Assembly (NCBI GenBank): GCA_963809485.1
Contig: CAWEJX010000007.1
Coordinates: 704,001-768,000 of the forward strand
DNA length: 64,000 nucleotides
Origin: an uncultured Acidobacteriota bacterium
GTDB taxonomy: Bacteria; Acidobacteriota; UBA6911
Direction: 5' to 3'
Of the stretch, positions 10,473 through 63,662 are shown piece after piece (position 1 is the stretch's first letter; each line of letters begins with the position of its first letter). The notes beneath the pieces were generated by a model. The model made no database searches. It was not told where the DNA came from and saw only the letters and a list, made by a program, of their open reading frames with translations. Both the position numbers and the translations under genes were made by a program.

Positions 10473-11822
10473 ATGGCCAGCAAGGCACGGCGCGATTGGT
10501 CGGAGTGGGCGGATTGGATCCGGGAAAGAGACGATCCCAAAATTGCACATACAAAACCTGAAGCACTGGACGACATCATAGTGCTGGACCTGAGTTCCAA
10601 AAACTTTGGCGGATGCGCCTGCTCCACGGCGCTGTCCGAATTCGGCGCAAAAGTTTTGAGGATTGAACCCCCGGAGGGCGATTTCATCCGGACCTGCACG
10701 CCCTACGGATTCCTGCACCAGGGCGAAGGATTGAATTACCTGACCGAGGGCAGGAACAAACTGCACATCACCCTGGACCTGGAAAAGCCGCAGGCAAGGG
10801 AGATGCTCAAGGAGCTTGTGTACAAGGCGGATGTCCTCATCGAAACCTACAAACCCGGAACGATGGAGGCATGGGGCCTGGGATATGAGCAGCTGAAAAC
10901 GGTCAACCCGGGGCTTATCTATGCCTCCCTTACCGGCTACGGAGTGTTCGGCCCCATGAGCCGGAGCCGCATGCCCGACTACGACAATGTCGCCCAGGCC
11001 AGGTCCGGATTCCAGTACGACACCGGTGAGCGGCTGCCGGCCGGCAAAACCATAGACGACTGCCCCTGGGCGATCCCCACAAAGTCCGGTCCCTGGATCG
11101 CCTGGTGCATGTCGGGAACATTCATGGCTATGGGGATCCTGGCTGCACTGCACTGGAAGTTCCGCACGGGCGAGGGACAAGCTCTGGAAATCGCCACCGC
11201 GGAAGCCTACGCCCGTATCGACGATTTCGTCGCGCTCTGGTACGAGCACGAAGGCCGCATCAACGAACGTTTCGGCAACCTGGACACCGCCATCTGGCTT
11301 TACTGCTTTGCGCCCACGCGGGACGGAGCCGTCTTTTTAGGCGGCCTGAGGCTGGAGATGTGGCAGGCTTTCGCGGATATGATCGGCAAGTGGGACGAAT
11401 GGGGAGCCGCCGGCTGGACCAGCATCGCGCCATTCACCCGCGAGGAAGAACAGCTCAAATGGTCCGCCATGATCTTCGAGGAAACGCGCAAGTACACCAG
11501 CGACGAGCTTCTGAACATGTCCCTGGAATATTCCAAACACGGACGCCTGGCGCCGATAACGTGCGTGGTGGCGGCCGTACTGCCTCCCGAAGAAGCCATC
11601 AAGGATCCCAACTGGCTCGACCGCGGCATCTTCACGCCCGTTCAGGATCCGGTCTACGGAGAGATCGTTGCCGCGCAGGCGCAATATAAATTGACCGAAA
11701 CCCCAATCCGGGTCCGTTGGGTGTGCCGCCCTGTCGGCTACGACAACGAGTCTGTCTACTCGCAATACCTGGGGCTCGATGCTTCCCGGATTATGGATTT
11801 AAAAAGGGAAGGTGTAATTTAG
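10473..11822 (+). CDS. CoA-transferase family III (CaiB/BaiF), second subunit
   Basis: FGAKVLRIEPPEGD, ADVLIETYKPG, ASLTGYGVFGP, GEGQALE. Confidence 0.9.
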   Translation: MASKARRDWSEWADWIRERDDPKIAHTKPEALDDIIVLDLSSKNFGGCACSTALSEFGAKVLRIEPPEGDFIRTCTPYGFLHQGEGLNYLTEGRNKLHITLDLEKPQAREMLKELVYKADVLIETYKPGTMEAWGLGYEQLKTVNPGLIYASLTGYGVFGPMSRSRMPDYDNVAQARSGFQYDTGERLPAGKTIDDCPWAIPTKSGPWIAWCMSGTFMAMGILAALHWKFRTGEGQALEIATAEAYARIDDFVALWYEHEGRINERFGNLDTAIWLYCFAPTRDGAVFLGGLRLEMWQAFADMIGKWDEWGAAGWTSIAPFTREEEQLKWSAMIFEETRKYTSDELLNMSLEYSKHGRLAPITCVVAAVLPPEEAIKDPNWLDRGIFTPVQDPVYGEIVAAQAQYKLTETPIRVRWVCRPVGYDNESVYSQYLGLDASRIMDLKREGVI

Positions 11823-11827
11823 AGCTA

Positions 11828-12423
11828 TAACGCTGACGGACGCTGAAAAAACGCTGACATACGCTGACACAAAAAAATTTATAGATATATTTTTTCAGCG
11901 TATGTCAGCGTTTCCGTCGGCGTAGGTCAGCGTATAATAGCGGAGCGGCCTTCATTAAAGCCTTGGATGTTGCCGAACTTCATGGCATTTCGCGCCCGTT
12001 GATGAATCACCCGTTTTCTTTGAAGTGCTTCCGGATAATTTTACCCACATCAGGCGGATATTCCGCTTTTCCGACACTGACGGACGCTGAGAGAAGCGCT
12101 GACAAACGCTGACTCAAAAAAATTTATAGATATATTTTTTCAGCGTATGTCAGCGTTCCGTCGGCGTAGGTCAGCGTATAATAGCGGAGCGGCCTTCATT
12201 AAAGCCTTGGATGTTGCCGAACTTCATGGCATTTCGCGCCCGTTGATGAATCACCCGTTTTCTTTGAAGTGCTTCCGGATAATTTTACCCACATCAGGCG
12301 GATATTCCGCTTTTCCGACACTGACGGACGCTGAGAGAAGCGCTGACAAACGCTGACTCAAAAAAATTTATAGATATATTTTTTCAGCGTATGTCAGCGT
12401 TTCTGTCGGCGTCCGTCAGCGTT
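11828..12423. repeat. Three ACGCYGAC elements separated by two ~140-bp diverged copies of the iorB 3' end (244-245 bp tandem unit)
   Basis: Elements at about 11828-11934, 12076-12178 and 12320-12423. Spacers 11936-12078 and 12180-12322 match iorB 12425-12461 joined to 12582-12692. Confidence 0.9.
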
Positions 12424-13015
12424 CAATAGCGGAGCGGCCTTCATTAAAGGCCTGGATGTTGATCTCGTGCAGCCGGGCGGGCAGCATCTCCCTGATGGCT
12501 TCGATCCACTGCCCGGCGTTCAGCTCGGGGAAGAATCCCGATACGGCGCCGAGGATGACAACGTTCGCTACCTGGATGTTGCCGAGCTTCCTGGCGATTT
12601 CCCGCCCGTTGACGACCCACACGTTTTCTTTGAAGTGCTTCCGGAAAATTTTCTCCACATCCGGCGGATACTCCGCTTTGCCGAGGCTGACGGTCGGGGG
12701 AAGGATCTTCTGGTTGTTGAGGATCACTTTGCCGTCGGGCTTCAGCCAGTTCAGGTAGCGCAAGGCCTCCAGAAGCTCGAAGGAGATGAGGTAATCCGCG
12801 TCCCCCTGCTTGATGAGGGGCGAGTGCACCTTCCGGCCGAAGCGGAAGTGCGTCGTGACGTCGCCGCCGCGCTGGGCCATGCCGTGGACTTCCGCCTTCT
12901 TCACGTCATAGCCGGCATTGAGCAAAACCTGGCCGAGGATATTGCTCGCGAGGATGGTGCCCTGTCCTCCCACGCCTGAAAGAAATATGTTTCTGGTCCT
13001 GCCGTCATTGGACAT
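12416..13015 (-). CDS. iorB: Indolepyruvate ferredoxin oxidoreductase subunit beta
   Basis: GVGGQGTILAS, EVHGMAQRGGDV, SPLIKQGDADYL, NVVILGA. RBS GAGGAG. The final ER* is encoded by a repeat arm. Confidence 0.93.
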   Translation of the reverse strand: MSNDGRTRNIFLSGVGGQGTILASNILGQVLLNAGYDVKKAEVHGMAQRGGDVTTHFRFGRKVHSPLIKQGDADYLISFELLEALRYLNWLKPDGKVILNNQKILPPTVSLGKAEYPPDVEKIFRKHFKENVWVVNGREIARKLGNIQVANVVILGAVSGFFPELNAGQWIEAIREMLPARLHEINIQAFNEGRSAIER

Positions 13016-14936: not shown

Positions 14937-15332
14937 ATTGGTAAACCCCCGGCTCTGCCGGGAGACTCAAAGAGTTTGGCAGCTCCGTATTTTGAAACGC
15001 TGAGAAACGCTGATAAAAGCGCTGACAAACGCGGATTTATTCGGCGAGGGTCGGCGAGCAAAAGCCGATGAGGCGCTTCCGATGGAGTTTTCTGCGGCGG
15101 CACTGTGGCAAACGCCCGGTTTCTCATACCCTTCATCTCCTTGCCGCACGGCGCTTGCCACAGTGCCGCCGCAGAAAACTGTCCAGCGCGGAGCGCTGGC
15201 CTCTGCGGGAATCGGAAGCGCCTCATCGGCTTTTGCCCGCGTAAGTCAGCGTTCAAGACCGGCGTAACTAGTCCAACCGCTTTGAGCGGTTCAAATCTTT
15301 CAAGCCTCCGGCTTTGCCGGAGGTACCGGACT
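14937..15332. mobile_element. IS200/IS605-like MITE (no transposase) containing ACGCYGAC arms and a nested long hairpin
   Basis: Left hairpin CCCCGGCTCTGCCGGG. Right-end hairpins AACCGCTTTGAGCGGTT and CCTCCGGCTTTGCCGGAGG. Related copies at 21404, 51147 and 52482. Family assignment is by resemblance only. Confidence 0.6.
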
Positions 15333-21403: not shown

Positions 21404-21525
21404 ATTGGTAAACCCACGGCTCTGCCGGGGGACTCATAGAGTTTGACAGCTCCGTATTTTGAAACGCTGAGATACGCTGACAAAAGCGCTGACAAACGCC
21501 GATTTGTTCGGCGAGGGTCGGCGGG
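21404..21525 (+). mobile_element. Partial copy of the IS200-like MITE (left end plus ACGCYGAC arm)
   Basis: About 120 bp similar to 14937-15059 (ATTGGTAAACCC..GGCTCTGCCGGG..GACTC..GAGTTTG.CAGCTCCGTATTTTGAAACGCTGAG..). Confidence 0.75.
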
Positions 21526-35147: not shown

Positions 35148-35230
35148 TAACGCTGACGGACGCTGACAAAACCGCTGACGGACGCTGATAATTTTTATAT
35201 TTATTTTTCAGGTCAGCGTAGTCAGCGTTA
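35148..35230. repeat. ACGCYGAC element
   Basis: TAACGCTGACGGACGCTGACAAAACCGCTGACGGACGCTGA, AT loop, GTCAGCGTAGTCAGCGTTA. Lies in a divergent intergenic region. Confidence 0.85.
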
Positions 35231-37027: not shown

Positions 37028-37359
37028 ACGTTGAACGTTGAACGTGGAACGTTGAACGTTGAACGTTGAACGTTGAAAAACACGGCCGGGTTGGCGGGGA
37101 TGTTCGGGTTGGGTGTCAATGGAAGTGGAACGTTGAACGTTTGAACGTTGAACGTTGAACGTTGAAAAACAGGGCCGGGTTGACGGGGATGTTCGGGTTG
37201 GGTGTCAATGGAAGTGGAACGTTGAACGTTTGAACGTTGAACGTTGAAAAACACGGCCGGGTTGGCGGGGATGTGCGGATTGGGTGTCAATGGACGTGAA
37301 ACGTTGAACGTGTAAACGTGTAAACGTTCCAACGTGTAAACGTGCAAACGTTCAACGTC
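37025..37359. repeat. AACGTTG heptamer arrays interleaved with three copies of a ~48-bp block
   Basis: Block AAAAACACGGCCGGGTTGGCGGGGATGTTCGGGTTGGGTGTCAATGGA at about 37076, 37165 and 37247 (periods 89 and 82 bp). Confidence 0.9.
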
Positions 37360-38520: not shown

Positions 38521-38603
38521 TAACGCGGACATACGCTGACAGGACGCCGACGAACGCCGAAAAAACATATATAAAAATTTTGTTCAGCGTGGGTCGGCGT
38601 TCA
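38521..38603. repeat. ACGCYGAC element
   Basis: TAACG duplicated around the preceding stop (TAACG|TAACGCGGAC). Full left arm, short right arm. Confidence 0.85.
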
Positions 38604-38611
38604 ACCTACAT

Positions 38612-41600
38612 ATGCACTCGAAACTGGGGATGTGGTGCGGGGCGTTGATGGAGGCGGCGTGGCTCGCTGCGGCTGCCGCCACACCCCTGTTTTTCAATAT
38701 CTCCTCAAGCCAGGTCTTTGAGCCGGACAAAATGCTCGTGCTCAAGTTCTTCGCCATCCTCTCCGGCGCCGCCTGCGTTGTGAAAATAGCGGACTCGGCC
38801 CGGCAGCGCCGCGTCGAGGAAGAAATGCCCCACGGCCGGATTTTATCCAATCCCATCGCGATCGCCGTGATCTGCCTCGCCGCAGTCTGGACCCTGAGCT
38901 CAATCTTCTCCATCCTGCCGGCGCGCAGCTGGCAGGGTTCTTTTGAGCGCGCCCAGGGGACTTTCGCCCTCTATGCCTACGTCATTCTATTTCTTGTCGT
39001 GCTGTTCGAACTGCGGTCCGCGGCGCAGCTGAGACGTCTGCAATTTGCTTTTATTTTACCTGCTTTCCCTATCAGTGCTTATGCAATACTTCAATATTTA
39101 GGATCCGATCCGATGCCCTGGAGCAATCCGGTCGCAGGCCGGTCTTCGGCAAGCATGGGGAATCCGATTTTCCTCGGCGCGTACCTGATCCTGGTGATTC
39201 CCCTGACCGTCAGCGCAATCGCGGATGCGGCCGGCATGATACGGTCAGGCGGCAAAAAGCCCGGGAAAATCTTTACGCTTTGCTGCAGCGCGGGCCTGGC
39301 GCTCCAGCTCATTGCGCTTCTGTGCACCCAGAGCCGGGGACCGGTGATGGGTCTGGCGGCCGCCGCTTATCTGTGCCTTTTCGTTCTCCTTGCCATGAAA
39401 CGCAATGCACGCAAGGCGCCTTCGCTGAAATGGACCGGAGCCGCCGCCCTGGCAACCGCCGCGCCTGTGCTCGTGTTGGCCGCAGCATGGTTTATGGGAG
39501 GAACGAAGGCGATTTCCTCTCTCGGCCGCGAGGCCCAGGAGGCCGAGGCGACGGTCAGCGTGCGCGTTTGCCTGTGGCAGACGGCGGTCAGCGCGCTGCG
39601 CTCCCCTTTTTCATCCTCCTCTCCGTCCGGCGTCGCGCCGCCTCCATTTCACTCCCTGCGGCCCGTAATCGGTTACGGTCCCGAATGCATCGTATATCCG
39701 GCCAGCCTGAATGCTGTGCCCGGGCTGGTGAAACTTCACGCGGGCCAAACCGTTGACCGCTTGCACAATGAAATATTCGACAGCCTGATATCAACCGGGC
39801 TCTTGGGCGCAATTGCGATCCTCTTCCTGTTCGCGGCTGCTTTTTACTGTGCGCTTCGGTACCTGGGTTTTCCCTGCAGCGGCGCCCGCAGGTTTTTATT
39901 TCCGGTTTTCGCCGTTGCCGGCATTGTCGCCGGGGTTGTGTTGCCCTGGGCGTTGGGCGCGCCTCATTTTGCGGGCATAGGAACCCAGGTGGGGCTGCTG
40001 GCCGGTGTGTTTGCGTTTGCAGCCTGGAGCTCATTCCGCAACCTGATCACGGGTTCAGCCGGCAGCCGCAGGACTCTGGTGCTCTGCCTGCTGGCCGCCC
40101 TCACGGCTCATTTCGTTGAAACCGGCGTGGGCATCGCGGTCACTCCGACCCGCACCTGCCTTTTCCTGGCGCTCGCCGTTCTGGCTGTCCTGACGTCCCG
40201 CGAGCTTAAGGGCGATGAGGCGGTGAAACGCCGGGCTTCCAGGGCGGCGCGCTGGTCCCGGAATCCTTTGCTGCCGATGGCGGCCGCGGCCTGCATTGTC
40301 CTTCTGCTCGAAGCCTGGTGCTTCGTCATAAACACCGGGGACGAGCAGAGCGCCCTGTCGCTGTTTCTGCAGACGTGGTTCAGCCGTCCTCCCGGGAGCA
40401 GATTCCTTCTTCCCGGCACTCTGACTCTGCTGGTGCTTACGGTCTTCGGCAGTCTCGGCCTGATGGCCGGTGAAAACCCGCGCCTCGAAGCGCTGCGCCT
40501 CAAATTCCGGCAGGCTGCGGTCGCGCCCACACTCTCCATGATTTTCACCTGGCTGGCCGGCGGCCTGCTTGCGGCAGTCTTCTGGACGGCTCTGGATGCG
40601 GACGCCGCCACGCCGCTGCACGTGTCCGCGCGCGCGGAAGCGCGCATGACCTATTTGCTCTGCGCCCTTCTGCTGCTGTGGATTGGGGCCGCGCTCAGCC
40701 TGATCGCCGCAGCTGCGGACGACTCGCGCAATCCCGCGTCCTCCGCCGGCGGCATGCGCAGGCTGTGGCCCGCACTGCTGCTGGCCATTTGCGCCCTGGC
40801 TGCAATCTCCGAACTGATCCTCCGGCCCGCCCGGTCGGACATCGCGCGGCGCATCGCCTCGATTTGTGAAGCTTCCGGAAATTACCCCGGCGCGGCTCAG
40901 GTCTACGAAAGAGCGGTTGAATTGTCGCCGCGCACGGTTGCGAATCACCTGTCGCTCGGGCTCGCCCGGAGCCGGGCTGCAATGGCCGAAACAGGCCGGG
41001 GCAGGGATGCGCATTATGATGCCGCCGCGCAATCCTACGCCCGGGCGCTGGAGCTCAATCCGCTGGATCCGGCTGCGCATAGGGCCGCGGGATCTTTTTA
41101 CGCCCAGACGGGCGAAAGCCTGCCCGACCCATCGGAAAGGGCCGCGCGGATTCGCAGAGCCCTGCCGTACTTTGAACAGGCCACGCGCCTGGCGCCCGGT
41201 TATCCCGACGCCTATGCAGAATTGGGCCGCTGCCATTTTCTGCTCGGGGAAGAGGCTAAGGCCGGGGAGCTATACAACAAGGCCCTCCAGCTGAACCCGC
41301 TGTTTTCACGCACCCACATGTTCATTGGGGAGATGCATTACCGGCGCAAAAACTACCGGCAGGCCCTGGATAGTTTCCTGCAGGCATCGCAGAATGACTT
41401 GCAGAATCTCGATGCGAGCAAGAGTGCCGCAGCCATGCTGGTGCTGCTCGGCCGCAGGCAGGAAGCGGTTGAGATTTATCTGAAAGCGCTGGCAATATGG
41501 CCGAAGGACCCGGACCTCCTGAGGCGGCTGGCTTCGCTTTACTTCAGCCTGGACGACTACAGCTCCGGCGTCACCTATGCCCGCCGCGCCCACGCCGCCC

Positions 41601-41668
41601 TCCCGCCCAACGCCGCCGGCAGCTTCGACTCTTTTATCGAGCAGCTTCGTAACGCGGACCTACGCTGA
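38612..41668 (+). CDS. O-antigen ligase/Wzy_C-like membrane protein with C-terminal TPR repeats
   Basis: FEPDK, SASMGNPIFLGAYL, TQSRG, R..LWQ, IGYGPE, DRLHNEIFD, about 7 TPR-like units. Ends NADLR*, encoded by a repeat arm. Confidence 0.82.
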   Translation: MHSKLGMWCGALMEAAWLAAAAATPLFFNISSSQVFEPDKMLVLKFFAILSGAACVVKIADSARQRRVEEEMPHGRILSNPIAIAVICLAAVWTLSSIFSILPARSWQGSFERAQGTFALYAYVILFLVVLFELRSAAQLRRLQFAFILPAFPISAYAILQYLGSDPMPWSNPVAGRSSASMGNPIFLGAYLILVIPLTVSAIADAAGMIRSGGKKPGKIFTLCCSAGLALQLIALLCTQSRGPVMGLAAAAYLCLFVLLAMKRNARKAPSLKWTGAAALATAAPVLVLAAAWFMGGTKAISSLGREAQEAEATVSVRVCLWQTAVSALRSPFSSSSPSGVAPPPFHSLRPVIGYGPECIVYPASLNAVPGLVKLHAGQTVDRLHNEIFDSLISTGLLGAIAILFLFAAAFYCALRYLGFPCSGARRFLFPVFAVAGIVAGVVLPWALGAPHFAGIGTQVGLLAGVFAFAAWSSFRNLITGSAGSRRTLVLCLLAALTAHFVETGVGIAVTPTRTCLFLALAVLAVLTSRELKGDEAVKRRASRAARWSRNPLLPMAAAACIVLLLEAWCFVINTGDEQSALSLFLQTWFSRPPGSRFLLPGTLTLLVLTVFGSLGLMAGENPRLEALRLKFRQAAVAPTLSMIFTWLAGGLLAAVFWTALDADAATPLHVSARAEARMTYLLCALLLLWIGAALSLIAAAADDSRNPASSAGGMRRLWPALLLAICALAAISELILRPARSDIARRIASICEASGNYPGAAQVYERAVELSPRTVANHLSLGLARSRAAMAETGRGRDAHYDAAAQSYARALELNPLDPAAHRAAGSFYAQTGESLPDPSERAARIRRALPYFEQATRLAPGYPDAYAELGRCHFLLGEEAKAGELYNKALQLNPLFSRTHMFIGEMHYRRKNYRQALDSFLQASQNDLQNLDASKSAAAMLVLLGRRQEAVEIYLKALAIWPKDPDLLRRLASLYFSLDDYSSGVTYARRAHAALPPNAAGSFDSFIEQLRNADLR

Positions 41669-41726
41669 AAAAATATAAATAAATGATCAGCGTGCGTCGG
41701 CGTTTTATCAGCGTAAGTCAGCGTTA
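41650..41726. repeat. ACGCYGAC element
   Basis: The left arm supplies the last codons and stop of the ligase gene. The right arm ends 4 bp from the convergent stop. Confidence 0.88.
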
Positions 41727-42335: not shown

Positions 42336-42442
42336 TCACGCTGACGTACGCGGGCAAAACGCTGACTTACGCTGACAAAAAAATATATATATATTTTTTT
42401 AGTCGGCGTGAGTCGGCGTCCTGTCAGCGTACGTCAGCGTTA
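42336..42442. repeat. ACGCYGAC palindromic element (full)
   Basis: The right arm encodes the HAD C-terminus [14 protein letters not shown]. Confidence 0.9.
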
Positions 42443-49947: not shown

Positions 49948-50032
49948 AGTCCATGCTCCGCGAATGGCGTTTTTTCGTTATAGGGTGAATGCGCAGTTTC
50001 GCATAACATCCGGCAGAGGGCAAATCCTAAAA

Positions 50033-50098
50033 AACGTTGAACGTTTGAACGTTTGAACGTTCAACGTTCCAACGTTCCAACGTTCCACCTTCCACGTT
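50033..50098. repeat. AACGTT-core heptamer array, inverted halves
   Basis: AACGTTGAACGTTTGAACGTTTGAACGTTCAACGTTCCAACGTTCCAACGTTCCACCTTCCACGTT. Confidence 0.85.
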
Positions 50099-51146: not shown

Positions 51147-51381
51147 ATGGCCAACCACCGCCTCTGGCGCCGCGACTCAAAGAGTTTGACAGCTCCGTAT
51201 TTTGAAACGCTGACGTACGCTGACATGACGCTGACGTACGCTGAAAAAATATATAAATTTTTTTCGGCGTGGGTCGGCGTCCGTTCAGCGTAAGTCAGCG
51301 TTCAAGACCGGCGTAACTAGTCCAACCGTTTTGAGCGGTTCAAATCCTTCAAGCCTCCGGCTTTGCCGGAGGTACCTGACT
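51147..51381. mobile_element. IS200-like MITE copy containing a full ACGCYGAC element (about 51204-51304)
   Basis: Degenerate left end, GACTCAAAGAGTTTGACAGCTCCGTATTTTG, element, then a right end near-identical to 15253-15332. Confidence 0.7.
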
Positions 51382-51391
51382 GAGGCCAGTA

Positions 51392-52501
51392 TTGCAATAT
51401 CGTAAATTCGGCAGGCTTGATTGGGAAGCATCTGCGCTGGGTCTGGGCTGCGGGATGCTTCCCGATGATGCCGGCGAATCGATCGCGCTGATACGTTGCG
51501 CCATCGACAGTGGCGTGAATTACCTGGATCTGGGGCATCCCTATGATCTCGGACGCCACCAACGCGCAGCCGTGGCTGTCGGCGCCGCGCTTGCGGACGG
51601 GTACCGCAAAAAAGTCAAAGTCGCCCTGACGCTGCCCGTCCATCTCATCCATTCGAAAGCGGACCTGGAGGCGGAATTCTCCCGGCAGCTCAGCCTGATG
51701 GGCGCCGAGCGGGTGGACTTCTGCCTGTTCGGGAGTCTGAACCGCGAGAACTGGCCCGTCCTGCGTGGGCTGGGCGCGCTGGAATGGATGGAAGCCGCCC
51801 TGAAGGACGGCAGGGCCGGCTATGCCGGCTTCGCCTTCCATGACCATTATCAGCCGCTCAAGAGCATCGTGGAATCCTGGGACCGATGGTCGCTTTGCCG
51901 GTTTCAGTTCAGCTACATGGATGTCGCCCACGATCCCGGCATCACCGGCATACGGTACGCGGCCCGGAAGGGACTCGCCGCGGTCGTGACGGAGCCCATG
52001 AAAGGGAGCCGGCTGGAACACCTGCCCGGGCCGGCTGCCGGCATGCTGGCCGGCGTGGAGAACCGCAGCCCCGCAGAATGGGCTCTGCGCTTTGTCTGGA
52101 ATTTCGGGGAAATATCGACCGTCGTCCTCGACGCGAATTCCGTTGCGGGGCTGAAGAAGGCTGTGGAGCTTGCCGGCCGTTGCGGGCCGGACAGCCTGAC
52201 GGTTCAGGAAGAGGTGCTGATCGGCAAAGTAAGGGATGCGCTCATGGCCCTGCGCGACATCCCGTGCCCCTCATGCCGGGCCTGCATGCCCTGTCCCGTG
52301 GAAATCGACGTGCCGCGCATATTCGAGCTGTACAACGACGCATTCATGTACGGCGACGTGGAGAGCGCGCGTCTTATTTACCAGGATGAAGGGCACCAGC
52401 CCGGCCTGTGCACGGAATGCGGCTACTGCGAAAAAAACTGCGCCAAACGCCTCCCCGTCCTCGACCTCCTCAAGAAAGCCGTCCGTATTTTGAAACGCTG
52501 A
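51392..52501 (+). CDS. Aldo/keto reductase family protein with C-terminal 4Fe-4S domain (divergent)
   Basis: YRKFGRLDWEASALGLGC, GVNYLD, GF.FHD, EPMKG, CPSCRACMPCP, CTECGYCEKNC. Ends VRILKR*, encoded by the repeat. Confidence 0.85.
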   Translation: MQYRKFGRLDWEASALGLGCGMLPDDAGESIALIRCAIDSGVNYLDLGHPYDLGRHQRAAVAVGAALADGYRKKVKVALTLPVHLIHSKADLEAEFSRQLSLMGAERVDFCLFGSLNRENWPVLRGLGALEWMEAALKDGRAGYAGFAFHDHYQPLKSIVESWDRWSLCRFQFSYMDVAHDPGITGIRYAARKGLAAVVTEPMKGSRLEHLPGPAAGMLAGVENRSPAEWALRFVWNFGEISTVVLDANSVAGLKKAVELAGRCGPDSLTVQEEVLIGKVRDALMALRDIPCPSCRACMPCPVEIDVPRIFELYNDAFMYGDVESARLIYQDEGHQPGLCTECGYCEKNCAKRLPVLDLLKKAVRILKR

Positions 52502-52622
52502 CGTACGCTGACATGACGCTGACGTACGCTGAAAAAATATATAAATTTTTTTCGGCGTGGGTCGGCGTCCGTTCAGCGTAAGTCAGCGTTCAAGACCGGC
52601 GTAACCCCTCCAACCGCTTTGA
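52482..52622. repeat. ~140-bp direct repeat of 51194-51334 (ACGCYGAC element plus MITE flanks)
   Basis: Near-identical to 51194-51334. Encodes the C-termini of both convergent genes. Confidence 0.92.
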
Positions 52623-54801: not shown

Positions 54802-54899
54802 TAACGCTGACGTACGCCGAAGGACGCTGATGAACGCTGAAAAAATATATATATAAATTGTTTCGGCGTGTGTCAGCGTTTTGTCAGCGTAAGTCAGCG
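54802..54899. repeat. ACGCYGAC palindromic element (full)
   Basis: Four units per arm, in a divergent intergenic region. Confidence 0.9.
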
Positions 54900-58187: not shown

Positions 58188-59450
58188 ATGGATGCTGGGA
58201 GGGGAATTATGTTGAGGGCCGGCAATAAGTGCGGATTGGCCCGTCATTTTACCTGGGCTATTTTGCTGTGTATCTCATTCTCTCTGGCGGCGCAGGGATG
58301 CAGGGGCCGTTCTGAATCGCAGGAGACTCCGTCCAAAGGAGGGATGCGCGGCGGTGCGGTTACGGTTGTTGCCGCCATAGCCGTCCAGAAAGACGTGCCG
58401 ATCAACATCCAGGCTGTCGGCCGCATCGAGAGCTCTGCCACGGTCACCCTGAAATCCCAGATGAGCGGGGAACTGATGCAGGTGCTTTTCCGCGAAGGAG
58501 ATTTTGTCAAACAGGGGCAGGAGCTTTTCAGGGTCGATTCGCGCACCTACGAGGCGCAACTGACCCAGGCGCAGGCCAACCTGTCGAAGGATGAAGCCGC
58601 ACTCGCCCAGATGGAGGCGAACCTGGCGCGCGATCTTGCCCAGCAGAAATACGCGGAATCGCAGGCCGCACGCGACCGCAGCCTCCTGGGGAAAAATCTC
58701 GTTTCGAAGGAGCAGGCGGAGCAGTCGGCCGCCAGCGCGGAAGCGGCTGCCGCGACGGTCCGGGCCGACCAGGCGGCGGTCCTGAGCGCCCGCGCCTCGA
58801 TCGAAGCCACTAAAGCCGAGATCGCCAACGCCCGCATCCTGCTCGGCTACGCCAGCATCCGCTCGCCCATCAGCGGCCGGACCGGGAGCCTCCTCATCCA
58901 GCAGGGCAACCTGGTCGGCCCCAACACGGAGCTCATGACCATAAACCAGATCGAGCCGGTTTACGCCGCCTTCTCCGTGCCCGAAAATCAGCTGCCTTCC
59001 GTGAAGAAGGGGCAGGCCGTATCGATTTCGAAAGACGCGGGCCCGTCAACGTTTGAGGACGGCAAGCTTTTCTTTATCGATAACGCCGTGGATGAATCGA
59101 CGGGAACCATCCTCGTCAAAGCCGCCTTTGCAAACCGCAGCCACCAGCTTTGGCCGGGCGAGTTTGTCCGCGTGGTCCTGAGGCTTGGAACCCGGGCGGG
59201 CGCTCTGGTAGTGCCCGGCCAGGCCGTGCAGGCGGGCCAGGAAGGATCGTTCGTGTTCGTCGTGAAGCCGGACCAGACCGTCGAATCGCGCCCCGTCGTC
59301 CCCGGGATGCACGTCGATGGGCAAATTGTGATAGAAAAAGGCCTGGAACCCGGCGAAACGGTTGTCACCGAAGGCCAGCTCCGTCTCACGGCCGGCAGCA
59401 AGGTTCAGGTAACGCTGACAAACGCCGACAAAAACGCTGACGTACGCTGA
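58188..59450 (+). CDS. RND efflux periplasmic adaptor subunit (MdtA-like)
   Basis: F.EGDFVKQGQELF, IRSPISGRTG, IDNAVDESTGTI, LWPGEFV, GLEPGETVVTEGQ. Tail TLTNADKNADVR* comes from a repeat arm. Confidence 0.93.
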   Translation: MDAGRGIMLRAGNKCGLARHFTWAILLCISFSLAAQGCRGRSESQETPSKGGMRGGAVTVVAAIAVQKDVPINIQAVGRIESSATVTLKSQMSGELMQVLFREGDFVKQGQELFRVDSRTYEAQLTQAQANLSKDEAALAQMEANLARDLAQQKYAESQAARDRSLLGKNLVSKEQAEQSAASAEAAAATVRADQAAVLSARASIEATKAEIANARILLGYASIRSPISGRTGSLLIQQGNLVGPNTELMTINQIEPVYAAFSVPENQLPSVKKGQAVSISKDAGPSTFEDGKLFFIDNAVDESTGTILVKAAFANRSHQLWPGEFVRVVLRLGTRAGALVVPGQAVQAGQEGSFVFVVKPDQTVESRPVVPGMHVDGQIVIEKGLEPGETVVTEGQLRLTAGSKVQVTLTNADKNADVR

Positions 59451-59532
59451 TATTTTTAGTAACGCCGACTTACGCTGACAAAACCGCGGACGAACGCCGA
59501 CAGATAGGATACGGGTCAGCGTATATCGGCGG
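59410..59532. repeat. ACGCYGAC element (two tandem left arms plus degenerate right arm)
   Basis: TAACGCTGACAAACGCCGAC.. at 59410, TAACGCCGACTTACGCTGAC.. at 59460, GTCAGCGTATATCGGCG at about 59515. Confidence 0.85.
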
Positions 59533-59570
59533 CTAAGATTGCTGGAGCTTAAAAAAGCACTGTGGATGTT

Positions 59571-59807
59571 TCATAATTGATGGGTGCGGCCAAGGTCGGC
59601 TTCATCCCATTCCCGCAGCAAGGACTGTTCTTCCGGATTCGCTGCCAGGAATTCCTCATAGGATACCGCCGCCCGTGAGAGCCTTCGCCGGGCCAGGTCC
59701 TTTCGCAGGACATCCCGGATATACGCGGAAATACTCATAGCTTCCGGCTTCACCGCCTCCAACTCATTGAGCAGTTCCCCTTCTATCTTTACAGTAGTAG
59801 CCTTCAT
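59571..59807 (-). CDS. Ribbon-helix-helix antitoxin-like small protein
   Basis: MKATTVKIEGELL.EL....MSISAYIRDVLR (RHH pattern), acidic tail with EW. No toxin follows. Confidence 0.6.
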   Translation of the reverse strand: MKATTVKIEGELLNELEAVKPEAMSISAYIRDVLRKDLARRRLSRAAVSYEEFLAANPEEQSLLREWDEADLGRTHQL

Positions 59808-59840
59808 TCCAATATTCTACTTTATCCGCAGTATGAACTC

Positions 59841-59930
59841 AACCTTCCACGTTCCACGTTCCACGTTCAAACGTTCAAACGTTCAAAACGTTCAACGTTC
59901 AAACGTTCGAACGTTCCAGGTTCCACGTTT
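59841..59930. repeat. AACGTT-core heptamer array
   Basis: (GTTCCAC/GTTCAAAC)n, about 12 units. Confidence 0.85.
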
Positions 59931-59965
59931 CAGTTTGAACAGGTATAATCAGTCCGGGGTAACTG

Positions 59966-61069
59966 GTGAAACGGAAACTGCTGCTTGCGCTCTGTGTGCT
60001 GATCGTCATAGGATATTTGATTGTCGGCCTGTGGCCCTTCGAGTTCAATCCCGACAACCGGGTGGCGTGGTCCTTAGACGGCCAGGGGATCGCCCTGAGC
60101 CATCCGTCGATCCTGTACAGTGAGAAGCCTGTCGATTTGAGAAACAGCGGGGGAAACGTCAGCGTCGAAGTGTGTCTGCAGCCGGCAGAGGAGCCCGCCT
60201 GGGGATTCACCAAAATCCTGTCCCTGTCCGAAGAAAGTGTGCGCAGGAACCTGTTTGTGGCGCAGCGGGAAAAAAATCTTTGGCTGCAGCTTCCGATATG
60301 GGACAAAGGCAGATGGAATGCCTACGACCAGGTATGGGTCAAGGGAGTGCTGCAGCGGGGCGTGCGGCGCTTTGTGGCGGTGACTGCCGGAACCGAGGGA
60401 ACGGATTTTTACGTGGATGGAGTGCTGGCGCGGAGCTATCCGAAACTGAAGCCGAGGCCCAATGTGCTGCGCGGCTATGTGGTGCTGGGGGGAATCGGGA
60501 GCGGGAACCGAAACTGGGAAGGGCGGCTGTACGGCGCCGCGATATTCGACCGGACGCTTTCGGCGTCGGACATCGCGCGCCACTACAGCCTGTGGAGCGG
60601 CGCTGAACGGCGGAAAATTGCGGAAGAGGACGGACTATCGGCGCTTTATTTTTTTGATGAAAAAGGCGGGAGCGTCGTCCGGGACCACGGACCGGCGGGT
60701 GCGACGATGCGGATCGGCGCCAAGTACCAACTGCGGGACCGCAGCGTGTTTCCGGCGTTTTGGAGGGGCGGGTACAGCCGCGTCGACATCGCCATCAACC
60801 TGCTCGGTTTCGTCCCGTTCGGCTTGTGCTATTTCCTATACAGGAAGCGGACACATCCGGGGCGGCTTTGGGGCAATATTTTCGTAACGCTCATTATTGC
60901 CGCGGCCGTCAGCGCCACGATCGAAACGCTCCAAATCTGGCTTCCGGTCCGATCCCCGTCCTACCTGGATCTCATCTGCAACATTTCGGGGGCTGCGGCA
61001 GGGTTGATTTTAACGCTGACGTACGCTGACAGAACGCCGACCCACGCTGAAAAACAAAAAATATACTGA
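59966..61069 (+). CDS. Membrane protein with LamG/ConA-like domain and C-terminal VanZ-like domain
   Basis: GLWPFEF; FVAVT..FYVDG..W.G.L..AIFDRTLS (LamG-like); DIAINLLGFVPFG..IETLQ.WLP.R..S..D...N..G (VanZ). Tail [19 protein letters not shown] comes from a repeat arm. Confidence 0.75.
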   Translation: MKRKLLLALCVLIVIGYLIVGLWPFEFNPDNRVAWSLDGQGIALSHPSILYSEKPVDLRNSGGNVSVEVCLQPAEEPAWGFTKILSLSEESVRRNLFVAQREKNLWLQLPIWDKGRWNAYDQVWVKGVLQRGVRRFVAVTAGTEGTDFYVDGVLARSYPKLKPRPNVLRGYVVLGGIGSGNRNWEGRLYGAAIFDRTLSASDIARHYSLWSGAERRKIAEEDGLSALYFFDEKGGSVVRDHGPAGATMRIGAKYQLRDRSVFPAFWRGGYSRVDIAINLLGFVPFGLCYFLYRKRTHPGRLWGNIFVTLIIAAAVSATIETLQIWLPVRSPSYLDLICNISGAAAGLILTLTYADRTPTHAEKQKIY

Positions 61070-61584
61070 AATATTTGAGCCGGTAGCGAAACAATTCCGG
61101 TATGGAACTGAAATATTCCGAAACTACCGGGCCATTGATCGACCTTTTTTTCGACGTATACAAAACGCTAGGATATGGATTTCTGGAACGGGTTTATGGA
61201 AAAGCCATGACGGTAGCGGGACCGAAGTATGGGCTCATAATCAAGCCGGAAGTCAAAATTAGGGTGTTTTTTGAAGGCATAGAGGTTGGCAAATACGAGC
61301 CGGATCTGATTGTGAATGATGCCGTGATTGTGGAGCTGAAAACATGCCAGGCGATCCTCAAAGAACATGAGGCTCAGCTGTTGAACTACCTCAAGGCCAC
61401 GAAGTACGAAGTCGGCTTTCTGTTTAACTTTGGCCCCATCGCGCGATATAAGCGCATGGTTTTTGAAAACGCGCGCAAGGGCACTCTTTCATGGATCCAG
61501 CCGCAGCCCGATCCGGCAACATTGCCATAGCAGGCTGGATTTTTTCAGCGTGTGTCGGCGTCCGGTCAGCGTGCGTCAGCGTTA
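61011..61584. mobile_element. Putative autonomous element: 44-bp ACGCYGAC inverted arms enclosing a GxxExxY nuclease gene
   Basis: Left arm 61011-61054 and right arm 61541-61584 are reverse complements at 40/44 positions. They are of the same family as the ~25 empty copies. Confidence 0.7.
61102..61530 (+). CDS. GxxExxY protein (PD-(D/E)XK nuclease-like)
   Basis: LGYGFLERVY signature, PDLIVNDAVIVELK catalytic-type motif, HEAQLLNYLKAT..G.L.NFG. Visibly more AT-rich than neighbouring genes. Confidence 0.93.
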   Translation: MELKYSETTGPLIDLFFDVYKTLGYGFLERVYGKAMTVAGPKYGLIIKPEVKIRVFFEGIEVGKYEPDLIVNDAVIVELKTCQAILKEHEAQLLNYLKATKYEVGFLFNFGPIARYKRMVFENARKGTLSWIQPQPDPATLP

Positions 61585-62504
61585 TTCAGATACCACCGGT
61601 AAGTGGCCTCTATGCCCTGGCGCAACGGGATTTTGGGTTGCCAGCCGAGATAGCGGAGGCGCGAGACGTCCATGAGCTTGCGCGGCGTGCCGTCGGGCAT
61701 CGCCGGATCGAACTCGATGTCACCCTCATACCCCACCACCTCGCGCACCATCTCGCACAGCTCGCGTATCGTCAGGTCCTCGCCCGTCCCCACGTTGATG
61801 ATCTCTTCCTGATCGTAGCGCTCCATCAGGAATACCAACGCGTCGGCGAGGTCGTCGACGTGCAGGAACTCCCGCCTCGGCGTCCCCGTCCCCCACACCT
61901 TGACGCTCGGCGTGCCCGCCGCTTTGGCGTCGTGGAATTTCCGCAGCAGCGCAGGAAGCACGTGCGACGTCTGCAAATCGAAGTTGTCCCCCGGCCCGTA
62001 CAGGTTGGTCGGCATGGCGCTGATGGCGGCAAACCCGTACTGGCGGCGGTAGGCCTGGCAAAGCTTGATGCCGGCGATCTTGGCGATGGCGTACCACTCG
62101 TTGGTCGGCTCGAGCGGCCCGGTCAGCAGGTGCTCTTCGCGCAGCGGCTGCGGCGCCAGTTTCGGGTAAATGCACGACGAGCCCGTAAAGAGCAGCTTCT
62201 TGACTCCGCAGCGCCACGCTGCGTGGATGACGTTCGCCTCGATCATCAGGTTCTGGTAAATGAATTCCGCCGGGTAAGCATTGTTGGCCTGTATCCCGCC
62301 GACGCGCGCCGCGACCAGGTACACCTGCTCCGGCCGCTCTTTTTCGAAGAAAGCGTTTGCAGCCCGCTGGTCCATCAGGTCCAGTTCATCGATCGTCCGG
62401 ACCAGCAGCCCCTCAGGTCCGCCCAGCCGCCGCACAATCGCGGAACCTACGAGACCCGTGTGGCCCGCAACATAGATCTTCGTCATAGATTCGCCTTTCT
62501 TCAA
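61566..62504 (-). CDS. fcl: GDP-L-fucose synthase
   Basis: [62 protein letters not shown]. Ends NADAR* in a repeat arm. Confidence 0.96.
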
Positions 62505-63564: not shown

Positions 63565-63662
63565 TGAACGCTGACACACGCTGACAAAACGCTGACGCAC
63601 GCCGAAATTTTATATATTTTTTTCAGCGTGTGTCGGCGTTTTGTCAGCGTACGTCAGCGTTA
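63565..63662. repeat. ACGCYGAC palindromic element (full)
   Basis: The right arm encodes the ABC protein tail [17 protein letters not shown]. Confidence 0.92.

Follow-up and report, generated by a model that had tools for sequence, protein, structure and literature searches.

The window analysed here is a 64,000-nucleotide stretch of the genome of an uncultured Acidobacteriota bacterium (G000:C7:704001-768000, from the 6.04-Mb, 21-contig assembly G000), and it contains, between two convergent genes, a 574-bp unit (61011-61584) in which a small gene of the GxxExxY family is enclosed by two inverted arms made of short, phased units. The best-supported reading of this unit is that it is the coding copy of a palindromic, unit-array family of selfish elements, with an architecture like that of the intervening sequences (IVS) of 23S rRNA genes, and that the short palindromes found elsewhere in the genome are its gene-less relatives. 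The anatomy of the unit, the linkage of gene and arms, the co-variation of motif and protein, the series of deletion derivatives, the clustering of copies and the differences between orthologous sites were computed directly from the sequences. That the GxxExxY protein, a predicted nuclease, might itself mobilise the element is a proposal that we hold tentatively, and place just on the doubtful side of the middle.

Anatomy of the gene-bearing unit

The unit and its two neighbours comprise the following features.

61011..61054 (+), left arm; four ACGC(T/C)GA units, outer end TAA, inner end entering an A tract
61055..61101 (+), AT-rich leader from the left arm to the start codon; 36% GC, no sigma-70-type promoter found
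61102..61530 (+), GxxExxY / PDDEXK_3 open reading frame (ORF); 142 amino acids (aa), E..D..ExK motif intact
61541..61584 (-), right arm; 40/44 reverse complement of the left arm, units directed at the gene
59966..61069 (+), VanZ and Laminin_G_3 gene; the final 59 nt, with the stop, come from the left arm and its inner flank
61566..62504 (-), GDP-L-fucose synthase gene fcl (NF047922, 3.4e-156); last codons and stop (..NNADAR*) inside the right arm

Recomputation reproduced the arm complementarity claimed in an earlier note on this DNA: the arms, 44 nt each and 486 nt apart, are reverse-complementary at 40 of 44 positions (91%), and all four mismatches lie within the 2-3-nt spacers separating the ACGCYGA units, of which each arm has four in one orientation, mostly with a trailing C, at a spacing of 10-11 bp. 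The outer ends of the unit (TAA...TTA) give last codons and stops to the convergent VanZ/Laminin_G_3 and fcl genes, so that both genes end inside the element, just as that note had said. When the left arm was searched against the window with up to three mismatches it matched itself and 63619-63662 on the minus strand (expected 0.00, from 100 shuffles), and the window contains 76 occurrences of the unit ACGCTGAC, where 2.05 are expected and shuffles gave 7 at most.

An Rfam scan of 60800-61800 gave no match, and a promoter and terminator scan of 60900-61700 found nothing. When 61005-61590 was folded as RNA the arms paired (-214 kcal/mol, z = -6.0), which would give an IVS-like stem were the region transcribed; no RNA sequencing run is listed as containing the window stretch, the best share among runs being 0.19. 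One metagenome contig (run X4) joins 61055-61336 to 61540-62084, with the gene inverted beside fcl at about 90% identity; either an assembly artefact or a flip between the two arms could explain it, and no claim here draws on it.

The GxxExxY protein

The 142-aa ORF matches PF13366 (9.4e-34, 116.7 bits; cut-off 22) and TIGR04256 (1.6e-31, 109 bits; cut-off 35), and is the only PF13366 gene in the whole 6.04-Mb genome. In the Pfam/TIGR profile search PF13366 was the sole Pfam match, and no transposase domain of a known class was found. An alignment of 27 relatives shows no variation at E29, Y32, E78, K80 and Q92 and at least 90% conservation at D68. These matches and residues, together with a GC content of 48.3% (59.7% and 62.9% in the neighbours), uphold the earlier description of a complete, AT-richer GxxExxY gene with an intact motif.

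An AlphaFold2 model of the protein (pLDDT 89.8) has a restriction-endonuclease-like, PD-(D/E)XK core, for which the best Foldseek matches, at modest scores, were the Cas4-like SSO0001 (4ic1), 3ijm, lambda exonuclease and Hjc. By its modelled fold and its acidic, acidic-x-Lys motif the protein is assigned to the PD-(D/E)XK nuclease superfamily, and catalysis is predicted. A sequence search of the PDB with the protein found no match, and a PADLOC scan returned weak Cas4 matches only (E about 0.007). The family is large, with 9365 cluster representatives at E <=0.001 in a single-sequence search with the window's protein, and includes fused proteins of 250-277 aa with two GxxExxY domains (P0001, P0002, P0005, P0006, P0008, and G048 C14:157920-158675), a composition that hints at a dimeric unit. 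In the available part of PMC3424549 PDDEXK_3 appears as 'unknown', and a GxxExxY gene beside a CRISPR-associated reverse transcriptase figures in an excerpt of PMC8934634.

Gene and arms are linked across phyla

Each gene was scored by the best local inverted repeat that pairs the roughly 200 nt before it with the roughly 230 nt after it, with a threshold of at least 18, arms being detected by seed chaining and local alignment. The cross-phylum set consisted of 80 loci (Acidobacteriota, Chloroflexota, Bacteroidota, Ignavibacteriota, Planctomycetota, KSB1, Poribacteria and others) gathered with a 6-row clade alignment, and so covers only relatives whose proteins are 44-67% identical to that of the window; 7 of the loci were dropped for short flanks.

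GxxExxY loci in 40 relatives: score at least 18 in 18/32 (shuffles at most 12)
GxxExxY loci from many phyla, testable: at least 18 in 45/73, at least 15 in 56/73
Mock genes shifted by 1 kb at the same loci: at least 18 in 0/135, at least 15 in 1/135
Ordinary ORFs of at least 200 aa on three G000 contigs: at least 18 in 21/1156

One of the 32 loci in relatives comes from the unpublished genome G034 and is among the misses. Because 45 of 73 loci and none of the 135 mocks reached the threshold, enclosure of the gene by arms is real and general. The earlier note had named a lack of excess over random genes as grounds for refuting its proposal, and the comparison instead returned a strong enrichment, also relative to the ordinary G000 ORFs. 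The two arms of a gene-bearing copy frequently agree to 85-97%.

Runs of short units make up every arm that was found. Units of class A, ACRCNGA(Y), with a period of about 10 bp, occur in relatives at 44-67% identity to the window's protein, and the deeper protein clade has class B (CNCVAAG) or other units. When 100 proteins were placed on a tree, all 56 rows of class A fell in an 82-row clade and all 9 rows of class B in an 18-row clade, a distribution that takes one change on the tree, at a split with 99 SH-aLRT support; within it the sub-motifs ACGCGGA, ACGCAGA, ACACGGA and ACGCTGA track subclades of the protein tree. The expectation in the earlier note that motif and protein phylogeny would co-vary was thus borne out. 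Polarity is also conserved, in that 52 of the 56 loci with class-A units on both sides have at least two units per flank directed at the gene, as in G000, the other four showing the opposite orientation only.

As the proteins diverged to 44-67% identity the units persisted and the spacers varied freely. Since a non-coding 7-mer survives with a linked protein at about 50% identity, beside free spacers, selection appears to act on the unit. In motif-poor genomes of the same genus (1-13 hits per genome) hits adjoin the orthologous gene in G002, G007, G015 and G024, and within Acidobacteriota the clade of the window's gene occupies at least 6 different genomic contexts. In the cultured Gemmatirosa kalamazoonensis KBS708 a class-A palindrome immediately follows the GxxExxY gene. 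ORFs and Pfam matches gave no backing to a hint that the gene stands beside fcl in another, distant genome of the Acidobacteriota.

Gene-less palindromes in G000

Palindromes in which the same arms enclose only a short AT-rich loop had been reported in the earlier note, and they were found throughout the window; in 25 well-formed copies of the genome with four units in each arm, 24 loops measure 17-27 nt and one measures 40 nt. Gene-less palindromes were also seen elsewhere in four metagenome contig sets. The following examples, to which no strand is assigned, can be compared with G006, the closest relative of G000 (fcl DNA 90% identical).

63568..63660, gene-less palindrome; right arm with 2 mismatches to the left arm of the gene-bearing unit; orthologous G006 site without a palindrome
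54804..54890, gene-less palindrome; also at the orthologous G006 site
42338..42440, gene-less palindrome; also at the orthologous G006 site
35150..35228, gene-less palindrome; GTGGAAC and AACGTT arrays instead at the orthologous G006 site

The palindrome at 54804-54890 is regarded as ancestral, since it is common to both genomes at an orthologous site. The window palindromes mostly differ in their flanking sequence. When a palindrome was defined strictly (at least two units per arm and a loop of 5-80 nt), G000 was found to hold 73, of which 22 have the flank motif of a larger repeat described below and 51 stand alone. Eighteen of the stand-alone copies lie in C7 700-790 kb, where the gene itself is at 765 kb, and 19 in C8 600-673 kb, which places 37 of 51 in 2 of 70 100-kb bins, both of them contig ends; the larger-repeat-linked palindromes are spread across 13 bins. 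The repeat was called dispersed in the earlier note; its stand-alone palindromes are regional, and the truly dispersed one is the larger repeat. Their clustering fits short-range spread from a source.

Among the 25 G000 palindromes with four units in each arm, complementarity between the spacers of the two arms is 117/227 (0.52), against 0.58 for shuffled partners, and 48/100 units are identical between arms. Because the spacers are not paired beyond chance, the symmetry is that of oriented unit arrays and not of a maintained stem; such data would fit a protein reading phased sites on duplex DNA better than a hairpin of the repetitive extragenic palindromic (REP) type or an RNA stem.

Palindromes also occur in tandem and in larger arrangements. 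Three ACGCTGA palindromes follow one another at 11815-12438 of the window with a 244-bp period and near-identical intervening sequence, and further tandem sets have periods of 138 bp (C8:627633-628285) and about 154 bp (C8:639845-640559). A 369-aa ORF (51392-52501) is bracketed by a palindrome and its flanks, present in two near-identical copies of 126 nt (window 51192-51317 and 52480-52605), the second copy providing the C-terminus of the ORF. Two further arm pairs are filled: C7:784600-785134, with a gap of 490 nt and a 127-aa ORF that has no Pfam match, and C6:408463-408971, made of AGGATCAA units, with a gap of 437 nt and no convincing ORF. Next to a cluster of palindrome arms (59397-59538) is a 78-aa ORF at 59571-59807 (-), likewise without a Pfam match.

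Deletion derivatives and larger repeats

Full copies and gene-less or deleted copies belong to one family in four genomes or more, which between them represent three unit classes. In G025 a single CACAGAG-armed full copy (C86) stands alongside multi-copy deleted forms, one of 216 nt, which consists of an arm, 32 codons, the last 10 codons and an arm and occurs in six places (four were inspected and have one common junction), and one of about 120 nt, present in at least 18 places. In G005 a CCGCGAAGA-armed full copy (C185) is accompanied by an internally deleted form of 375 nt with four full-length matches and one partial match, of which three full-length ones and the partial one were inspected and have one common junction; a second deletion type is also present. 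The Anaerolineae genome G050 has 6 GxxExxY genes; its class-A unit pairs number 211, and the reversed control yields 1. At L161-L163 of G050 gene-less class-A palindromes hold a second palindrome, of CNCAGAG units, nested in the loop.

G000 also contains a larger dispersed repeat (TAATTACATTGGTAAACC...GACTCAAAGAGTTTGACAG CTCCGTATTTTGAA ...), counted at 191 places by its diagnostic motif ACGCTGAGAWACGCTGA, to which many further ACGCYGA motif hits belong. This repeat, seen in the window at 14982-15029, 21449-21496 and 51150-51317, holds ACGCTGA units or a whole palindrome, and similar 86-nt inverted ends bracket 1.2 kb at C15:53786-55174.

Comparison with the closest relative

Across 33 kb of synteny between G000 and G006, 4 ACGCTGA palindromes are common to both genomes, G006 has none of its own and G000 has at least 5, the gene-bearing unit included; at the sites private to G000 the relative carries AACGTT or GTGGAAC arrays instead. 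Among further G006 copies with clear orthology 6 are common and 2 private, both of the larger-repeat-linked type. The VanZ/fcl junction of G006 has no gene and no empty ACGCTGA palindrome, and holds an array of AACGTT of about 50 nt. At the 3' end of fcl the outgroup G012 also has AACGTT units, and G007 has half an ACGCTGA arm, so that change at this site may have gone in either direction. From this small sample, the orthologous-site differences are compatible with activity only where the gene is present, and would not amount to proof of it.

The AACGTT and GTGGAA array families are abundant in both genomes. In the window, arrays of AACGTT, which is self-complementary, and of GTGGAA(C) fill many intergenic sites, among them 50030-50090, 37167-37214 and about 59820-59960. 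A 3.1-kb segment between two palindromes (window 38560-41703) is missing from syntenic G006, where one short palindrome stands.

A second protein family with the same layout

All 3 G000 genes of PF05635, a four-helix-bundle family annotated as '23S rRNA IVS protein' and Avd-like, lie between inverted unit arrays.

C1:517109-517616, PF05635 gene; arm units GGTTAG/GGATTAG
C8:297190-297730, PF05635 gene; arm units CCAGTTY
C20:906200-906560, PF05635 gene; arm units GACGATT

The arm-unit families of these genes also occur gene-less, and the four-helix-bundle genes of G006 have arms of their own. The copy at C8:297190-297730 is split into two ORFs. Genes for four-helix-bundle proteins have been found inside cas loci (PMC3936711, excerpt), and the proteins are described, in the available part of PMC10053308, as related to Avd and as having no catalytic fold.

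How the element might move

Binding, cleavage and the route of movement we infer to be as follows. Each arm would present three to four oriented 7-8-nt units, here ACGC(T/C)GA(C), one helical turn apart, and the enclosed GxxExxY protein would be a DNA-binding PD-(D/E)XK nuclease that the element itself encodes and that is specific for its unit; at both arms, several protomers of it might occupy the phased units of the duplex. Breaks at the arms would then lead to the arm-bounded unit being moved or copied, mostly over short range, into intergenic sites at gene ends, where the stop codons in its outer ends (TAA...TTA) would limit harm to flanking genes. The short palindromes would be internal-deletion derivatives that keep the arms and rely on a full copy. 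The nuclease is proposed as mobiliser on account of its conserved catalytic residues, the specificity between motif and protein, the phased and oriented units, the clustering, and the gains in the gene-bearing lineage. A wider proposal, possible but in our judgement more doubtful, is that GxxExxY proteins may be a new class of element-encoded, sequence-specific PD-(D/E)XK mobility nucleases with lineage-specific 7-8-nt units, which would move or copy both the unit between the arms and its gene-less derivatives, that the four-helix-bundle IVS elements may be a sister class with the same kind of arms, and that the two together may explain the origin of 23S IVS and, in many bacterial phyla, a share of intergenic palindromic and short tandem-unit repeats.

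A number of observations weigh against this account. All genomes used are metagenome-assembled, with an estimated contamination of 7.3% for G000, and G000 has one gene only, on which the whole case within this genome depends. G006 combines 221 motif hits with the lack of a PF13366 gene, at 98% completeness, and at face value is the repeat-rich genome without GxxExxY that the earlier note had named as grounds for refutation, an objection softened by the comparison of orthologous sites. Conversely, G002, G007, G012, G015 and G024 carry the gene with its arms and have at most 13 motif hits each, and hence no gene-less population. Three of the four loci with outward-pointing units (in G015, G002 and G012) are one shared locus, and the G002 copy of it has an in-frame stop. 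Related sequences inherit their labels, and so the co-variation of motif and protein is by itself no proof of recognition.

Several features of the repeats also weigh against it. The clustering of stand-alone copies also fits a repeat-prone region. One palindrome subfamily of G000, X/Y, is located inside the larger repeat, and the full and deleted copies of G025, on both sides, as well as the inspected deleted copies of G005, share sequence beyond their arms; these shared flanks and the palindromes within the larger repeat imply that amplification is partly passive. Because the aligned copies of G000 and of G025 share sequence beyond the arms, the ends of the element are not fixed by these alignments, and no target-site duplication is definable from them. 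No PF13366 or PF05635 gene inspected in G000 or G006 has AACGTT or GTGGAA(C) arms, which means that some abundant array families are without a known coding copy. Finally, PF05635 loci in relatives have arms at 17 of 23 testable loci, against 0 of 42 mocks, and since a four-helix bundle without a nuclease fold has the same layout, a nuclease is not needed for the architecture.

The main rival to the nuclease as mobiliser draws directly on these last points. It holds that the elements are real selfish units related to 23S IVS that are moved by host functions or by a structure-specific enzyme (replication slippage or template switching at palindromes, recombination, or an unlinked transposase), the enclosed protein being an accessory, nucleic-acid-binding factor for maintenance or expression. 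Two unrelated small-protein families with the same layout, one of them an Avd-like four-helix bundle without a catalytic fold (PMC10053308, in part), the array families that lack a gene-bearing copy, and the palindromes that G006 keeps without a gene would all be expected, and the G050 palindromes nested in loops of another motif suggest the palindrome centre as a target. We nevertheless think this rival rather unlikely: the E..D..ExK residues are invariant in 27 diverged relatives, which speaks for selection to keep a working nuclease, the motif varies with the protein, and the gains, in the regions examined, are found only in the gene-carrying lineage. Improbable, to our mind, is a role of the arms at the RNA level, whether as a read-through stem, in release or stabilisation by RNase III, or in insulation or termination, with the short palindromes being terminator- or REP-like and sharing ancestry only. 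The arms do pair in the predicted fold, no promoter of the unit's own was found, the two arms of gene-bearing copies are often closely alike, and the Coxiella IVS has a stem, heptamers and RNase III excision (PMC4990558, in part); but in gene-less copies neither the spacers nor the variable position of the unit have stayed complementary (0.52 vs 0.58; 48/100 units identical), the sequence and polarity of the unit are conserved across phyla beyond the needs of pairing, and the multi-copy deletion derivatives and the clustering are left unexplained.

Passive spread by larger repeats containing the palindrome, akin to insertion sequences (IS) or miniature inverted-repeat transposable elements (MITEs), with the gene-bearing copy as a passenger or nested insertion, would account for the 191 copies with ACGCTGAGAWACGCTGA, for the X/Y subfamily, for the flanks shared among G025 copies, the full one included, and for both G006-private copies being larger-repeat-linked. 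We give it little credence as a general explanation, since 51 of 73 strict G000 palindromes are stand-alone by the flank-motif test, with mostly different flanks in the window, since stand-alone copies are clustered and linked ones dispersed, and since the cross-phylum linkage is independent of any one outer repeat. Very improbable indeed is coincidence, by which an unrelated small gene landed in, or became bracketed by, existing palindromes. Matching flanks do occur at 21 of 1156 ordinary G000 genes, such as an alcohol-dehydrogenase-like ORF between ATTCGT arrays, but this explanation is already contradicted by the 45/73 against 0/135 loci, by the motif standing beside orthologues in genomes where it is otherwise near absent, and by the co-variation.

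Implications

If these genes are the coding cores of unit-array elements, then PF13366/TIGR04256 and PF05635, large families without an established function, gain a role that can be tested; the origin of 23S rRNA intervening sequences, long an open question, becomes approachable; and the palindromes and short tandem-unit arrays seen at the ends of genes in several phyla have a source. The pairing of protein and unit could yield small proteins with readable, programmable-looking DNA specificities. For annotation, it would account for such small genes inside operons and cas loci (PMC3936711 and PMC8934634, in the parts available) and for the repeat-encoded C-termini of their neighbours. Should the nuclease prove to be the engine, the system would be categorically new; otherwise these are selfish elements with coding and non-coding members, a known kind of thing. 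We found no description of elements with a gene between unit-array arms outside rRNA, for either family, in a search to which subscription journals, supplements and the comments of family databases were beyond scope.

Comparison with known systems

REPINs are REP doublets mobilised by a single-copy HUH Y1 transposase, the RAYT. The family described here resembles them in having one coding copy flanked by a repeat that is also frequent without it, and in repeats that are palindromic, intergenic and short. It differs in that the protein of the window is of the PD-(D/E)XK type and not an HUH Y1_Tnp, and in that the arms are phased unit arrays with unpaired spacers, so that the coding copy has no HUH Y1 transposase and the palindromes no conserved hairpin stem. 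Of the RAYT/REPIN-like pair proposed in the earlier note, the gene-bearing copy with its derivatives is retained; the PF05635 layout, G006 and the unpaired spacers speak against a simple analogy to RAYT and REPIN. No ACGCYGA units lie within 500 bp of the four G000 Y1_Tnp matches, which removes the obvious known mobiliser, and one of them, a RAYT-like gene at C15:225627 (C15:225447-226950), stands among several copies of another REP family, one with three hairpins.

Among autonomous transposons, Tn7, Mu and Ac/Ds have repeated subterminal binding sites and give rise to MITE-like deletion derivatives. The present elements likewise have inverted ends of several oriented, binding-site-like units and internal-deletion copies that are the more numerous, and the local clustering of the G000 copies resembles local hopping. 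As in pairs of MITEs and an autonomous IS, the deletion derivatives share the ends of the coding copy, with flanks in G025 and G005 that are shared beyond the arms. Unlike those transposons, they have no DDE, serine, tyrosine or HUH transposase, and their sole ORF here is of 142 aa; the aligned copies define no target-site duplication. TnsA of Tn7 and the homing endonuclease I-Ssp6803I are PD-(D/E)XK mobility nucleases, and thus small restriction-endonuclease-fold proteins that cut DNA for a mobile element, a function that is proposed here; in contrast to them the GxxExxY gene has no TnsB partner and no intron or intein, and its fold match is generic.

The closest architectural parallel we draw is to the 23S IVS. 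In Coxiella burnetii the IVS has a 28-bp terminal stem and tandem GACAGAT heptamers, variable in number, beside the S23p ORF, and it is excised by RNase III and termed a selfish element of unclear origin (PMC4990558, in the part available). The element of the window differs from it in lying between VanZ-like and fcl genes, outside rRNA, in having a PD-(D/E)XK ORF, and in its many gene-less copies. Common to both are a small ORF in the loop of a stem closed by terminal inverted repeats and the short tandem units, and the four-helix-bundle genes of G000, which belong to the IVS protein family, have the same arm layout.

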